Shown here one piece after another: positions 6,796 through 55,679 of a stretch of 64,000 nucleotides of DNA. Origin of the DNA: a virus (lineage: Duplodnaviria > Caudoviricetes); the IMG/VR virus record IMGVR_UViG_3300048881_000548, positions 7,103 through 71,102 of that record; one strand, written 5' to 3'. The translations under genes and the position numbers were made by a program. Within the stretch, counting starts at the first letter, position 1; each line of letters starts with the position of its first letter. Below the pieces are notes generated by a model. It saw only the letters and a program-made list of their open reading frames with translations, was not told where the DNA came from and searched no databases.

Positions 6796-7266
6796 GTGGT
6801 GAGCTACTTCACGATGAGCGCGCAGGCTCGCCACGCCGCGCAGACGATCTGGCTGCAGCGCACCAACCCCATGCTGCAGATGAGCTGCTTCACGCGGCTC
6901 ATGGCCAGGATCGACGACGCCACGCGGGCCCTGCAGAGCCGCACGACGATGCTCAAGGCCAACGAGGAGGGCCTGCGCATCGTCGACGACGTACTGGCTC
7001 GCACGCTGGAGGAATGGCGGCAGGCCGAGCCCAGCCTGCGTGACGTCATCGCCAGCGATGCCTTCTCCATCAAGGTCTTCGTCAGTCCCGACGACGCCAA
7101 CAAGCTGGAGGTCGTGCTGAATGAAGAGCTGCTTCAGCTCAGCCGCGGTGAGCACGCCGTCGAGATGCTGGCGCCCACAAGTCCCGAGTTCGTCGGCCAA
7201 GCCGTGCGCGCCAAGGTCTCGCCCATGCAGCTCTGGAAGAAGCTCTACGGCGACGCCCGCTTTTAG
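6796..7266 (+). CDS. Hypothetical protein
   Basis: GGAGG before a GTG start; phage-like codon usage. Confidence 0.7.
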   Translation: MVSYFTMSAQARHAAQTIWLQRTNPMLQMSCFTRLMARIDDATRALQSRTTMLKANEEGLRIVDDVLARTLEEWRQAEPSLRDVIASDAFSIKVFVSPDDANKLEVVLNEELLQLSRGEHAVEMLAPTSPEFVGQAVRAKVSPMQLWKKLYGDARF

Positions 7267-50815: not shown

Positions 50816-51910
50816 TTACTTGCTGCAGTGGGCAATGATGTGGGTGAAGGCGAGATCCTTGTCGGCGAGGATCACCACGCGTTTCGTGAAGCCCATCATG
50901 GCGCAGGCCTTGGAGGCGCGGATGATGAGCCCAGGATCCACGTGGAAGGGCTCATCGGGATCGTCCTCAGCGCCCTCGTATTTCATCTCGTCGTCGGCCT
51001 CGCCCATGGGGGACTTCGACAGGAGCTGGATGCGATCCTTGCCCAGCGTGACCTCCACGGCCTTGTCGTCTTCGCTGCCCAGCACCAGCATGGCGCGGGC
51101 AAAGGCCGACTCCCAGGCATCGGGGATGGGGAAGAGCTGGTCCTTGAGGCCCTTGAGCTTGACGTGCTTGCCCATCATCGTCGGGAAGTCGAGGGGCTCC
51201 AGGTCTACTGGCGTCTTACTAAAAAGCTCGGCAGCCTCGCCGAAGGTGGCGAAGAGCGCGCCACCCAGCAGGAAGAGGTCAATCTTTTCTTCGGGGAAGG
51301 CCCGCGACAGGCTGACGAGCTGCTCGCAGAAGAAGCGCGGCAGGATCACCGGCGTATCGCCAGGCAGCCGCACCTCGGTCTTCGTCTGGTAGCGGCTGAT
51401 GGTGAAGTTGTCGGTGCTGAAGAGAAGAGCGTCGCCGTTGTCGTCGCTATCCAGCGTCACGCCCATCTGCGCGGGGTGCGTGGGGTCGTTGTTGACGCTC
51501 ATGAGGCACCGCTCGATACCCTTGAGGATGCCCGCGTCGATGCGGATAGGGGCATCCGTCTTGGCGTTGACTTCGGGCGGCTGGTAGGGGAAGGCCTTGA
51601 GTTCGAGCGTGGGCAGCTTGACCTTGGCCCCCCGGCCGCTGGAGAGCACGAGTTCTTGGTTGGTGCCGGTCTGCATGGAAATTTCATCGCCGCCAAAGCT
51701 GCCGAGGCCTCGGATGAGCAGGTCACCGGGAACGCAGCGCCCGACGTCGGCCTTGCAGCGCACGGAGATCGCCGAGATGTCGTTGTATGCCGTGGCATAG
51801 TCGCCGTCGAAGTGGATGTGCGTCAGCGCCGGGATATAGGCAGCCGTGGCAAGGGCGGGGCGCACGATGTTGGCGGTCTTCAGCAGGGTTTCGCGTTTGA
51901 TAGTCGGCAT
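50816..51910 (-). CDS. Sliding clamp (DNA Pol III beta-like)
   Basis: 364 aa; IPALTHI, ATAYN, STD...SRY and DFP motifs; adjacent to polymerase and near the clamp loader. Confidence 0.75.
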   Translation of the reverse strand: MPTIKRETLLKTANIVRPALATAAYIPALTHIHFDGDYATAYNDISAISVRCKADVGRCVPGDLLIRGLGSFGGDEISMQTGTNQELVLSSGRGAKVKLPTLELKAFPYQPPEVNAKTDAPIRIDAGILKGIERCLMSVNNDPTHPAQMGVTLDSDDNGDALLFSTDNFTISRYQTKTEVRLPGDTPVILPRFFCEQLVSLSRAFPEEKIDLFLLGGALFATFGEAAELFSKTPVDLEPLDFPTMMGKHVKLKGLKDQLFPIPDAWESAFARAMLVLGSEDDKAVEVTLGKDRIQLLSKSPMGEADDEMKYEGAEDDPDEPFHVDPGLIIRASKACAMMGFTKRVVILADKDLAFTHIIAHCSK

Positions 51911-51919
51911 GGCTTGCTT

Positions 51920-52330
51920 TCAGTTGTAGGCGGATTCGAGATAACGCAGGGCCGGATCCAGGCCATCGACGATGATGGTGGCGTGGTACTGCAGCCAGAG
52001 GCTCAGCTCGTGCTTGGGCTGCAGGCTGGCGTTGACAACCACGATGGGTTTGTGCTGCTCCCAGGCGAAGAGGATCTCCATGGACGTGCCCACGCTGGGC
52101 ATGGCGTAATAGACGAGGAGCGCCGAGGCTTCGAGAATGTCCGCCTTGTCGGCTTCCACGATCTCGGTGGCGATGCCCGGCTGATTCATGCGACCGCGGG
52201 CATCACGGCGCATGGGATCCAGCACGGCATGCTCGCCCCAGTTGCGCGTCACGTATTGGCGCCAGTTGTTGCACTCGGCGTCGCTGAGGCCATGGATGGG
52301 CCCGCAGAGATAGAGCTTGTTGATCTTCAC
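51920..52330 (-). CDS. Nucleoside 2-deoxyribosyltransferase/dNMP N-glycosidase family protein
   Basis: LYLCGPI, WR, LDPMR, IVEADK.DI and SVGTSMEI nucleophile. Confidence 0.85.
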   Translation of the reverse strand: MKINKLYLCGPIHGLSDAECNNWRQYVTRNWGEHAVLDPMRRDARGRMNQPGIATEIVEADKADILEASALLVYYAMPSVGTSMEILFAWEQHKPIVVVNASLQPKHELSLWLQYHATIIVDGLDPALRYLESAYN

Positions 52331-52506
52331 TTGTTTTCCTTTGCTGGTGGAATGATGCTTTGCGGACTGCGTTTGGCGTGGCTTTGCGGATCCACGTAGA
52401 AGAAGAATGAGACGAGGATGTGTGGGAAGACGTGAGCCCCCAGCGTGTAGCCGTTGGCGGTGCTCGCGATGTGGCTTGCGTCAAGCCCGGCCAGAAAGAT
52501 TTTCAT
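52327..52506 (-). CDS. 59-aa micro-ORF resembling the N-terminal beta-alpha-beta module of DpdA/TGT-like proteins
   Basis: MKIFLAG...HILVSFFFY; GTGA coupling to the next gene. Confidence 0.55.
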   Translation of the reverse strand: MKIFLAGLDASHIASTANGYTLGAHVFPHILVSFFFYVDPQSHAKRSPQSIIPPAKENK

Positions 52507-52765
52507 CGTCTTCTTCTCGTAGAAGCTCGCGGTGGCTCGCCTTGACGTTGAGGAGCCCAGCCAATTCTTCGACGGCGCGGGCATCGCGGTTGATGATGGG
52601 CTGGTAAGGGCCTGGGGGCACAGAGATTGCCATCTCCTGCCGCTGGCTCTTGACGTATTCGACGAAGCTGACGAGCACTCGGTCGGCATCAGCGGCCCGC
52701 ACAGCAGCGCCCCAGCCACTGGCATGCCACGAGGGTGCCGCCCCGACGACTAGAAAGACTTTCAC
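52481..52765 (-). CDS. 94-aa ORF with the same module
   Basis: MKVFLVVG...RVLVSFVEY; GTG start overlaps the upstream TGA. Confidence 0.55.
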   Translation of the reverse strand: MKVFLVVGAAPSWHASGWGAAVRAADADRVLVSFVEYVKSQRQEMAISVPPGPYQPIINRDARAVEELAGLLNVKASHRELLREEDDENLSGRA

Positions 52766-53259
52766 TTGATTACGGCCCCTGTGATTCTGCTGTAGTGCGT
52801 CTCGGGGATGGGTGTCCTCAGCATTGCCGCCCATCTAGCGCTATGGCGCTTGTCTAGGACCTTGAGCTTTCGGATCAGCCGCACGCGGCGGTCGACGCTG
52901 GCCTCGTTCATGATGGAATCCATGAGCAGCCGCACGTGCTCTTGCGCAGCGCGCGGCCAAAGGCGGGTGTCAGGTGCCAACAGGACTTGGTCAGCCACGT
53001 CGCTGGGCAAACTCTTGAGGGCCTTGCGGCTGGCTGCCATGCTGTCGACGAGATGCTTGGGCAGCACTGGAGGCGGTGGGAGCCGCAGATTTATCTTCAC
53101 GGTGACCGGCCTGCGGACAGGCTGCTTTGCTGCGTCGTGAGCAGCCCAATAGGCCTTGGCCTGCCACGACGTGGCATCGCGCGGGAAAGGGGCCTTCTCG
53201 GCCCCATTACGGGCGTGCATGGCCCCCAGCTCTGCGTACTCTTCCTTCGTCTTTGCCAT
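52762..53259 (-). CDS. Hypothetical basic protein
   Basis: RBS AAGGAG; SWQAKAY motif. Confidence 0.7.
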   Translation of the reverse strand: MAKTKEEYAELGAMHARNGAEKAPFPRDATSWQAKAYWAAHDAAKQPVRRPVTVKINLRLPPPPVLPKHLVDSMAASRKALKSLPSDVADQVLLAPDTRLWPRAAQEHVRLLMDSIMNEASVDRRVRLIRKLKVLDKRHSARWAAMLRTPIPETHYSRITGAVIK

Positions 53260-53270
53260 GATGGTCTCCT

Positions 53271-54185
53271 TTACCAGAGGCTTTGCTTACGGATGCCGTC
53301 GGGCTTGAAGGGCGCGGCGGCTTTGGATTCGCTGACCTTCTTGAAGAAGGTCACGTTGCACACGGCGCGGTGGTAGTAGTGCTCTCCCACCTCGGCGTAG
53401 GTCTTGCCGCACTGCGCCAGCCATTTGTCGAGGATGGCGCGCATGGCTGGACTGAGCTGCGTCGTGCCCTTCTGATTCGACACGGCCACGGTCATTGGAG
53501 TAGCGTCGAAGACAAACTCGCCGTCTCGCATCGCCGGCAAAAGAATGCCGCCGTTAGCCGTGGCCTGGATCCAGCTCGTCGAGTCGACGCTGTGCCAGGG
53601 GTAGCGGAAGATGAGCGAGACCGACGTCATGCCGAAGCCGTGGGTTTTGACGAGCGGCTTGCCGTCGGCGTCAGTGATGCGCTTGAAAAGGCGGTCGAGC
53701 CAATGCTTGCGCATTACGCCAGGAATGCCCACGAGGCCGCCAATACCGATGTAGTCGCAGCCGTAGTCGAGCATGCGCTGCAGGAAGGCGAAGTCCTCCC
53801 CGTAATGGTAGACGGGGAGAGGATCGAGGCCCTCGGCCTTCATGTACAGATAGTTCTTCCACGTCGCCTCAGCAGCTTGTTGGCGCTGCAGCTCGGTCGC
53901 GGCCTTTCCAGGCGTCCCAGGGATCACGTCAAGGCAGGCATAGACCTCGATATGCTCGATGTTGGCCTTGATGAAGGCGCAATACTCGTCGAGGTCAATG
54001 GCCGTGCCACGGCTCCAGGCTGAGTAGGCGCCGCTGTCGAGGAAGAAGCTGAATTCAGATGGATCGATCATGATTCTTGGTGTCCTATCGTCTGAGAAGG
54101 GCGCAAGCCACCGAAGCACCTCTCTCTCTCTGGTGGCCCGTAGAGCCTTCATGTAATCGGGAGACCCTCCGGGCCACAGAATCAT
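53271..54185 (-). CDS. dpdA: DpdA/TGT-like 7-deazaguanine DNA transglycosylase
   Basis: FLDSGAYSAW, LDVIP, PVYHYGE, YIGIGG, HGFG and PWHSVDSTSW; directly downstream of queC-folE. Confidence 0.8.
   Translation of the reverse strand: MILWPGGSPDYMKALRATREREVLRWLAPFSDDRTPRIMIDPSEFSFFLDSGAYSAWSRGTAIDLDEYCAFIKANIEHIEVYACLDVIPGTPGKAATELQRQQAAEATWKNYLYMKAEGLDPLPVYHYGEDFAFLQRMLDYGCDYIGIGGLVGIPGVMRKHWLDRLFKRITDADGKPLVKTHGFGMTSVSLIFRYPWHSVDSTSWIQATANGGILLPAMRDGEFVFDATPMTVAVSNQKGTTQLSPAMRAILDKWLAQCGKTYAEVGEHYYHRAVCNVTFFKKVSESKAAAPFKPDGIRKQSLW
54120..54131. repeat. (CT)6/(AG)6 dinucleotide tract
   Basis: CTCTCTCTCTCT in the 5' part of the dpdA-like gene. Confidence 0.6.
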
Positions 54186-54187
54186 GG

Positions 54188-54802
54188 CTACCCCTTCACG
54201 AAGGCCATGAACTCGGCGCGAGCCTTGTCTTGGTCCTTGATGGCACCGCGGAGCGCCGAGGTGATGGTCGACGAGCCCTGCTTCTTGATGCCCCGCGAGC
54301 ACATGCAGAAGTGCTTTGCTTCGATGACGACGCCGACGCCGATAGGATCCAGGTGGTCCACGAGGGCCTGGGCAATCTCGTTGGTGAGGCGCTCCTGCAC
54401 CTGCAGACGATGCGCGAAGACGTCTGCCAGCCGCGCGAGCTTCGACAGGCCGACAATCTTGCCGTTGGGGATGTAGGCGATGTGGGCAACGCCGAAGAAG
54501 GGCGCCAGGTGGTGCTCACAGTGGCTGTAGATCTCGATGTCCTTGACGACCACCATCTCGTCGACGCCCTTGGCGCCATCCTCGAAGGTCTTGAGGATCT
54601 CACCGGGATCCTGATCGTAGCCGCTCGTCCACTCTGCCCAGGCCTTGGCAACGCGCATAGGCGTTTCCACGAGGCCTGGGCGCTTCGGGTTCTCGCCGAT
54701 GGCCTTGAGCAGGGTCTCGACGGCCCCCGCCGCGACCTCCAGCATGACGGGGCTTTTCAGCAGGCTGTAGCGCTTGTAATCGCCCATGTTCGGGTTAGCC
54801 AT
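54188..54802 (-). CDS. folE: GTP cyclohydrolase I
   Basis: GLVETP.RVA, SHCEHH..PF.G, GLSKLAR, RLQVQERLT and H.CM.SRG. Confidence 0.97.
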   Translation of the reverse strand: MANPNMGDYKRYSLLKSPVMLEVAAGAVETLLKAIGENPKRPGLVETPMRVAKAWAEWTSGYDQDPGEILKTFEDGAKGVDEMVVVKDIEIYSHCEHHLAPFFGVAHIAYIPNGKIVGLSKLARLADVFAHRLQVQERLTNEIAQALVDHLDPIGVGVVIEAKHFCMCSRGIKKQGSSTITSALRGAIKDQDKARAEFMAFVKG

Positions 54803-55679
54803 TGCTCTTGACCCCTTCCATGGAAGTGGCGCTGCGCTGGTCCTTCTGCCGCCAGCTCTCGATGGTCTGCTCGTGGCGCGTGATGGCATCCATGAGGCCC
54901 TGGGGCACGCGCTGGTAGTTGGCCGACTCGGGAATGGGCATGAGGCCATCCATGAGAGCCCGCACGATAAGGGGATCGGGCACGCCGGCTTCCTTGAAGC
55001 CATGGGCACGCAGCACCGTGGCGTGGTCCTTGCCCACGGGCGGATACTGGCCGTCGTAGGCCGTGTGGCTGAAGGCCAGCCAGGCAAACTTGTCGATGCC
55101 CAGGCGCTCGAGTCGGTCGATGCTTTGCGCCTTGCTCAGCTTCATGAGAGGCGTGAGGATGTCGATGAAGCGGTCGTCTCGTGCCGAATAGCCGAGAGCT
55201 TGATTGATGGCCTCCATCTGGTAGTTGATGAAGACCTGGCGGCAGTCCGGATAGTTGGCGTTGTCGGCCTCGCAGACGCCAGTCATGATCGTCTGTGCGC
55301 CCAGCACGGCAGCGCGATTCGCGGCGAGCGTGAGGAAGAGGGCGTTGCGCATCGGCACGAAAGTCTTCTCGACGCGGTCGCCGATGATGGCCGCCATGCT
55401 GTCGTGGTCCTTGTATTGCTCCAGCTCCTGGCTGGAATCGGTGAGCGGGCTCGTGCCCTTGAGGATGGGGCCGATCTCCACGAGTTCGTGACTGTCGACG
55501 CCAGCCAGGCGTGCGATGACGTAGGCGGCATCGATCTCGCGGCGGTGGCGCTGGGCATAGTCGAAGGTGACGGCATGCACCTCTCGGCACTCGCCGCGCG
55601 CCTTCATGTCCATGGCGATGGCAAGGCAGGTCGTGGAATCTTGGCCGCCGCTGAGGACGACGAGAACTTTCTTGGTCAT
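54795..55679 (-). CDS. queC: 7-cyano-7-deazaguanine synthase (variant lacking the Zn-binding Cys)
   Basis: LSGGQDSTTC, FDY.QRH..E, TFVP.RN..FL and YPDCR. Confidence 0.93.
   Translation of the reverse strand: MTKKVLVVLSGGQDSTTCLAIAMDMKARGECREVHAVTFDYAQRHRREIDAAYVIARLAGVDSHELVEIGPILKGTSPLTDSSQELEQYKDHDSMAAIIGDRVEKTFVPMRNALFLTLAANRAAVLGAQTIMTGVCEADNANYPDCRQVFINYQMEAINQALGYSARDDRFIDILTPLMKLSKAQSIDRLERLGIDKFAWLAFSHTAYDGQYPPVGKDHATVLRAHGFKEAGVPDPLIVRALMDGLMPIPESANYQRVPQGLMDAITRHEQTIESWRQKDQRSATSMEGVKSNG

Follow-up and report, generated by a model that had tools for sequence, protein, structure and literature searches.

The 64,000-nucleotide stretch of DNA analysed here (the window; positions 7,103 to 71,102 of IMG/VR record IMGVR_UViG_3300048881_000548) is the bulk of a complete 71.1-kb uncultured-virus record bearing direct terminal repeats, and it carries on its minus strand a gene for a DpdA-like DNA transglycosylase together with two small open reading frames (ORFs), micro-ORF B and micro-ORF C, which are the subject of this report. 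DpdA is the signature enzyme of phage 7-deazaguanine DNA modification. The genes for FolE and QueC adjoin the DpdA-like gene, and the insertion of 7-deazaguanine into DNA is the predicted function. An earlier note, made from the sequence alone, had proposed that this phage encodes up to three interchangeable N-terminal modules for one DpdA catalytic core, two of them as free-standing micro-ORFs and one at the start of the DpdA-like ORF, ahead of a second Met at position 54071. We confirmed from the sequence that B and C lie where they had been placed on the minus strand and that the in-frame Met 54071 stands eight residues before FFLDSGAY. The genes and features of the locus are listed below.

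54795-55679, minus strand: QueC (preQ0 pathway; PF06508, E 8.8e-48)
54188-54802, minus strand: FolE (GTP cyclohydrolase I; PF01227, E 5.2e-74), directly upstream of the cis module
53271-54185, minus strand: DpdA-like ORF, 304 aa from ATG 54185 (phrog_887, E 7.4e-52)
54072-54185, minus strand: cis N-module, predicted divergent version of beta1-alpha1-beta2, whose 38 codons run in frame into the DpdA core (upstream-module hidden Markov model (HMM), E 2.6e-10)
53271-54071, minus strand: DpdA catalytic core, 266 aa, predicted beta3 to alpha8 of the TIM barrel; identical with the publicly called gene P0006
52762-53259, minus strand: ORF165, between the core and the downstream modules, with no Pfam or PHROG match
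52481-52765, minus strand: micro-ORF B, 94 aa, GTG start; predicted free-standing beta1-alpha1-beta2 module with a conserved tail
52327-52506, minus strand: micro-ORF C, 59 aa, ATG start; predicted to be another free-standing module, its tail conserved and Pro-rich (module HMM, E 6.3e-20)
51920-52330, minus strand: nucleoside 2-deoxyribosyltransferase-like (Ndt-like) gene (PF05014, E 2e-8)
50816-51910, minus strand: sliding clamp (PF02767, E 3.5e-4, under Pfam's cutoff)
next after the clamp gene, minus strand: DNA polymerase, recognised by sequence alone

Start and stop codons overlap as GTGA at two junctions, the GTG of B with the TGA of ORF165 and the GTG of the Ndt-like gene with the TGA of C, and C begins 26 nt within the 3' end of B in another frame.

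The DpdA-like core and its N-terminus

The DpdA-like ORF belongs to the PHROG 887 family, the match to phrog_887 covering residues 46-288 of the long form on positions 57-281 of the 509 in the profile. No match to the Pfam TGT family was found at E<=1, and a HMMER profile of the DpdA alignment, searched against the PDB sequences, gave chance antibody matches only (E >= 0.18) and no solved chain at E<=0.1. The AlphaFold 2 model of the DpdA-like protein (66-row alignment) has a mean predicted local distance difference test score (pLDDT) of 86.2, and Foldseek placed it with TGT 2pot (E 1.9e-4) and with the DNA preQ0 insertase DpdA 7ui4 (E 3.4e-4), with a probability of 1.00. In VIA, model residues 39/41-294 were superposed on residues 91-371 of Z. 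mobilis TGT with Z of 13.0-13.5 in all 50 rows listed, the best superposition (Z 13.5) having a root-mean-square deviation of 3.6 over 220 residues, which identifies a TGT-like TIM-barrel fold. Because residue ~91 of TGT is where the alignment with the core begins, the core is without the first two beta/alpha units (beta1-alpha1-beta2(-alpha2)). It begins at the strand holding the LDSG motif, and the core as publicly called (P0006, 266 aa, 100% identical over 266 aa) falls short of a full (beta/alpha)8 barrel on a single chain. In the window the core is preceded by a divergent module in the same frame, and hence the long form might make up the whole barrel in cis.

For comparison, we used eight related loci (L002 to L009), whose DpdA is 60-91% identical to that of the window and which with the window make nine genomes, and the best 120 of 1067 DpdA relatives at E<=1e-5. 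At seven of the eight related loci, the DpdA match begins only at residue 38/39, which corresponds to Met 54071. Among the best 120 relatives, 67 start 8-18 residues ahead of FFLDSGA without any N-module, 42 have one in-frame N-module, two have two, one has three, and eight begin mid-module. The forms with two or three N-modules in one frame before the core (P0042, P0020, and P0015) have a Met at each module start. The eight mid-module starters (P0013, P0021, P0024, P0034, P0039, P0063, P0081, and P0106) hold the helix end and beta2 in frame and no beta1, and a frameshift internal to the module would yield such forms. All 54 N-extended forms (54/54) have M (50) or V/L (4) at or beside the core start, and each of the tandem modules likewise begins with M. 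The keeping of a Met at the start of the core, as judged from sequence, fits independent initiation of the core, a structural role of the residue being the alternative.

Single-chain DpdAs differ from the window core in precisely this region. In seven of them (Pseudomonas phage Iggy, Rhizobium phage RHEph04, and L010-L014; n=7), a strand, a helix, a second strand (L-x-S-aromatic) and a further helix precede the LDSG strand within one chain. The N-terminal pattern that the earlier note had given for DpdA is borne out by Iggy and RHEph04, whose FLDSGAFS strand is preceded by a hydrophobic strand, then by a helix and then by a strand reading L-E-S-[WY]-H-Y. Single-chain phage DpdAs of PHROG 887, such as those of Iggy and RHEph04 (gp50), share with the window the catalytic core, the FLDSGA[FY] strand, the later S-x-D-S strand and the gene order folE, dpdA, small ORFs, clamp, and DNA polymerase. 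In them, the LDSG strand is preceded by ~65 residues of the same chain that carry beta1-alpha1-beta2-alpha2, whereas the window core starts eight residues before that strand and the quarter would be encoded separately, in several versions. Bacterial DpdA (7UI4) and Z. mobilis TGT are alike in the TIM-barrel fold, with an identity to the core of just 12-15%, and differ in that the window core lacks the first two beta/alpha units. Near its C-terminus the core has one nearly invariant Cys and one His, and the CXCX2C...H motif is not evident; a structural Zn motif, CXCX2CX22H, is described for DpdA 7UI4 (PMC10164549). D50 and D201 (long-form numbering), on the LDSG and S-x-D-S strands, are invariant in 66 sequences and, from motif and strand position, are probably the catalytic Asp residues of TGT/DpdA.

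Micro-ORFs B and C and the module family

Modules were searched for by a regular-expression scan and then by an HMM built from 13 seeds, which found non-seed members in L004 (E 2.7e-11) and L009 (E 2.8e-10). A gapless alignment of B with C spans 43 residues, with 13/43 identical (pairwise E 8e-4). In the whole genome, the HMM search found exactly three modules (cis, B, and C) and one DpdA core. We had considered a second DpdA core served by the spare modules, and this is ruled out by the single core of the genome; similarly, B and C as N-terminal pieces of the Ndt-like gene were rejected, as the module HMMs miss the Ndt-like ORF at E<=1.

The supposition that the micro-ORFs are conserved in relatives holds. 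In all nine genomes (9/9), the interval from dpdA to the clamp gene holds one or more B-like ORFs; the downstream members number one to three per genome, and L009 has just the core and B. The B-like gene abuts dpdA in L004, L007, L008, and L009. C is found also at three related loci, with the overlapping layout kept:

L002, 3166-3351: C counterpart, tail motif kept
L003, 5758-5937: C counterpart, tail motif kept
L007, 5228-5428: C counterpart, tail motif kept

When the window is compared with L003, the differences in B number 48 synonymous and 30 non-synonymous, with a ratio of non-synonymous to synonymous substitution rates (dN/dS) of 0.08, and those in C 27 and 13, respectively (dN/dS 0.05); against L002, the ratio for C is 0.11. 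The core itself has 0.07-0.09. These ratios are rough because dS is near saturation, and their direction is clear. By these sequence comparisons, B and C are genes under purifying selection.

The family extends well beyond the nine genomes. Forty small proteins of the module family are already called as genes in public collections, B included, and C has among the called genes a near-identical 59-aa protein (P0126); its exact sequence is in the ESM Atlas, in which we found no usable neighbour and no model for it. Of 1.84 billion cluster representatives scanned in full, 83 matched at E<=1e-3; 77 of these are proteins of 51-114 aa whose match starts from residue 1-4, and four (P0231, P0234, P0237, and P0242) are low-complexity repeat proteins that we counted as false. 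There was no DpdA-length fusion among these 83 representatives. In a tblastn search of 50,697 phage records, neither B nor C had a relevant match.

These data bear directly on the reading in which the micro-ORFs arose by chance or are artefacts, through assembly or a frameshift, of a single larger gene. High-GC DNA is rich in spurious ORFs, B and C overlap in different frames, and one protein of 177 aa (P0187) is built from two modules of the free-standing type in one frame, all of which favour such a reading. The conservation data contradict it: the overlapping layout recurs in L002, L003, and L007, synonymous changes are in excess, 77 of the 83 family representatives are free-standing, and a 2-kb stretch of the locus is letter-identical (0 differences) in the contigs of 4/4 runs compared. 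We consider this reading barely credible.

The sequence link of the micro-ORFs to the N-terminus of DpdA, as claimed by the earlier note, held at the level of profiles and did not show in direct comparison. In hhalign, the micro-ORF profile matched the 42 in-frame N-modules of the long-form relatives from end to end, over 32 columns, with a probability of 94.7% (E 6e-8), and these in-frame modules sit where beta1-alpha1-beta2 belongs; direct BLASTP of B or C against the DpdA of the window gave nothing significant. The match of the module profile to canonical DpdAs was not significant either, and homology to the canonical N-terminus thus rests on position, pattern, and the structural model, and not on statistics.

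Several other features of the module genes were observed. The tail of C (52327-52390) has a short S-P-x-x-I-[IL]-P-P motif that is kept even in L007, where C is otherwise ~40% identical. The clamp gene lies next to C or one gene further downstream, and the tail of C is a candidate docking motif. A tail with four Cys (C-x2-4-C ... C-x2-5-C), a candidate zinc ribbon, occurs in 15/117 small proteins scanned, and B of the window is without it. Further module types, D and E, lie just before and overlapping the start of the clamp gene. The members of these groups are the following:

L007 4915-5253, L009 4822-5091, P0139-P0151, P0157, P0158, P0178, and P0204: four-Cys tail
L006 5462-5876, L004 2270-2539, and L005 5387-5575: modules of type D/E

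ORFs with an N-terminal stretch similar to that of ORF165 occupy the same place in L002, L003, L005, and L006, and there is none in L004, L007, L008, and L009. The Ndt-like gene, which is translationally coupled to C, is present too in L002, L003, and L004. A blastn search with the locus gave a coverage of just 4-6%, confined to dpdA. The 2-kb stretch (52300-54300) was also widely met with in sequencing runs: 14 runs carry 97-100% of its sampled words (13 at 1.00 and one at 0.97), and these represent 14 differently coded studies, including hydrothermal-vent metagenomes and six other 'organism' labels, all flagged as possible sources. In run X15, 22/30 bins were covered, and the runs listed included no RNA data. 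The presence of this stretch in many studies points either to a phage of very wide distribution or to contamination common to them.

Proposed fit of the modules to the barrel gap

Complex models of the core (55-row alignment) with B (38 rows) were predicted in three runs, with alignments of our own making. The ipSAE values of the pair were 0.87, 0.87, and 0.85, and the best control scored 0.00; the mark used for ipSAE is attained by 58/80 solved complexes and by 2/110 mismatched pairs. At least 46% of the contacts agree across the three runs. In the contacts of lowest error, residues 29-32 of B meet the core segment S-F-F-L-D (8-12), and residues 2-4 of B meet H-S-V-D (core 160-163), the strand that bears the second invariant Asp; the helix of B contacts core 232-253, the C-terminal helix. 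In this geometry, beta1 of B lies beside core beta8 and beta2 of B beside core beta3, as in a closed barrel. The model supports a placement of B at the beta1/beta2 position of the barrel, and this holds for B only. C keeps the strand residues of the lowest-error contacts of B, namely the hydrophobic beta1 and L-V-S-F in beta2.

For the cis module, the AlphaFold 2 model (pLDDT 60-75) shows bridges at residues 3 and 26 on either side of a helix at 11-20, and the module sequence has P-F where at least 90% of the free-standing modules read S-F. In the model of P0042, which has three tandem in-frame modules, the proximal module alone takes a strand-helix-strand form (pLDDT 71-77), while the first is unplaced (pLDDT 25) and the second forms low-confidence helices.

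The best explanation overall, to which we assign a probability of about 0.6, is a naturally split TIM-barrel DpdA in which a quarter of the barrel comes from small proteins; for B, this split-barrel reading is well supported computationally (about 0.6-0.7). The core from Met 54071 would supply beta3-beta8 with both invariant Asp motifs and without beta1-alpha1-beta2, and the missing quarter would be supplied by small proteins of ~40 structured residues. B would be the universal version, closing the barrel in trans, as in the model, by the insertion of its beta1 alongside core beta8 and of its beta2 alongside core beta3. C would be a second free-standing version, and the 38 codons before the core a third, cis-fused one. 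The three versions may compete for one site, so that only one at a time would be in the barrel. Of the proposal that up to three spare modules complete one core, the three modules, the single core, and its truncation are borne out, and B fits the barrel gap in the model.

A number of observations weigh against the split-barrel reading. The cis module shows the strand-helix-strand pattern in its AlphaFold 2 model, and the core is perhaps already complete in cis; a better Shine-Dalgarno-like stretch goes with the ATG at 54185 than with Met 54071; and VIA left the cis module unaligned to the first two units of TGT, untrimmed rows included. In the complex, the partner (B) has pLDDT of only 50-53, so that its own fold is uncertain, its tail is unplaced, and the alignments are author-built. 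The halves of a split fold can pass such a test by their likeness to solved single-chain barrels, and hence a pass denotes compatibility and not binding. At the level of sequence, B and C have no Pfam or PHROG match. The all-type module profile, run against the seven canonical DpdAs, reached the right position (3-46) at E 0.04 with a probability of 0.7%, which is not significant; the B-only profile went to the beta3 region (E 0.55), and the upstream-module profile found nothing.

The constancy of B also invites a simpler account, in which the gene is split into two pieces with B as the sole functional partner and with C and the cis-fused module as duplicates heading for loss. B-like genes are present in 9/9 genomes as against 4/9 for C and 2/9 for a type A, the upstream modules being absent in 5/9 and out of frame in 2/9, and one locus (L009) manages with the core and B alone. 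However, C is strongly purified across the window, L002, and L003, its tail motif is kept in the diverged L007, and 45 of the best 120 relatives retain one to three in-frame upstream modules; we regard this account as improbable.

It is slightly less improbable that the modules act as regulators or decoys, B or the cis module giving the active enzyme and the others filling the gap to inactivate, stabilise, or time the core. Such a role shares its structural logic with the split barrel, and both C and the cis module differ from B at many positions, the P-F of the cis module in place of S-F among them. Against this, C keeps the beta1/beta2 contact residues and is under selection as strong as that on the core (dN/dS 0.05-0.11), and nothing in the data separates an inhibitory occupant from an active one.

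Conceivably, the small proteins could instead partner with something else, such as the sliding clamp or the Ndt-like enzyme, their likeness to a barrel quarter being incidental. In all loci the module genes occupy the interval from dpdA to the clamp gene, and the Pro-rich tail of C might serve as a short docking motif. The profile link of the free-standing modules to modules fused to DpdA cores, the score of 0.00 in the control in which the core was swapped for an unrelated protein, and the failure of the module HMMs to hit the Ndt-like ORF make this very unlikely.

Module choice, dinucleotide repeats and meaning

Dinucleotide repeats of at least five units are confined to module DNA in the sequences compared. 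The window has just one, a (GA)6 tract at 54120-54131 within the cis module, and in 125.5 kb over nine sequences all five (5/5) are AG/CT repeats that lie in module DNA:

window, 54120-54131: (GA)6, within the cis module
L003 and L005: AG/CT repeats at the module-core junctions
L006: (CT)6 in each of two micro-ORFs, the modules of type D/E

In L003 and L005, the out-of-frame upstream modules are exactly one repeat unit away from an in-frame fusion, with no intervening stop, and four long-form relatives read L-S-L-S at the same module-core junction. A pattern search for (GA)5 in the window gave one match against 0.15 expected, with at least one in 14/100 shuffles, which is weak alone; the argument for slippage comes from the recurrence of the repeats across loci and not from the window match alone. 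The (GA)6 tract is invariant in the contigs of 4/4 runs, which is uninformative on slippage, as contigs would hide rare length variants. The pattern of AG/CT repeats suggests a slippage switch, the alternatives being assembly error and plain decay.

The loops of DpdA after beta1 and beta2 (Ins1 and Ins2) are described as DpdA-specific, and Ins2, which together with Ins3 flanks the active site, may aid sequence recognition (PMC10164549). The tails of the modules fall at the position of Ins2 and differ by type, that of B being long, with four Cys in 15 of the small proteins, and that of C Pro-rich. As the part after beta2 differs between the modules, the choice of module could alter the DNA-site preference, the activity, or the partners of the enzyme; that module choice changes specificity is a reasoned inference from these positions. 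Interchangeability of the modules with switching of specificity is plausible, at odds well short of even. The AG/CT repeat in or beside the cis module could switch its fusion on and off. In its fullest form, the proposal would be of a combinatorial, possibly phase-variable enzyme, in which one core takes B, C, or the cis module, each with a loop or tail that sets the motif, the base, or the partner, and slippage in the repeat toggles the cis fusion, thereby freeing or blocking the site. We hold this fuller form to be unlikely, if somewhat less so than a role of the modules as regulators or decoys.

Type I/III restriction-modification systems have exchangeable or phase-variable specificity subunits and use simple-sequence repeats as switches. 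The arrangement proposed here would resemble them, by analogy and with no homology, in combining one catalytic unit with alternative small parts, and would differ in that the exchangeable part is an integral piece of the catalytic fold. In the laboratory, (beta/alpha)8 barrels have reportedly been built from separate engineered pieces, by fragment complementation and by the swapping of quarters, and archaeal TGT is split between whole domains and not within the barrel. Unlike these, the split here would be natural, would fall after beta2, and would have several alternative pieces.

The earlier note knew of no description of such a system, and the literature searches agree. Full-text searches, and the passages found by term searches in 10.1101/2023.04.13.536721, PMC10164549, PMC10484667, and PMC6884629, gave no description of a split or N-truncated DpdA; N-truncated members might appear in the supplementary alignments of PMC10164549 and PMC10516641. 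Nor did these searches and passages describe any TIM barrel in nature that different small proteins can close.

What determines the DNA-site preference of DpdA is, to our knowledge, not known. If the split-barrel reading is true, it would point to the loops after beta1 and beta2 as the seat of DpdA specificity, and current annotation would miss an essential subunit in a large clade, in which 67 of the best 120 relatives appear as 'truncated' cores. The combinatorial form, if true, would give phage populations with mixed modification patterns against restriction and modification-dependent defences. A natural enzyme whose TIM barrel is completed by one out of a set of small exchangeable proteins would represent a novel route to the construction and diversification of enzymes.

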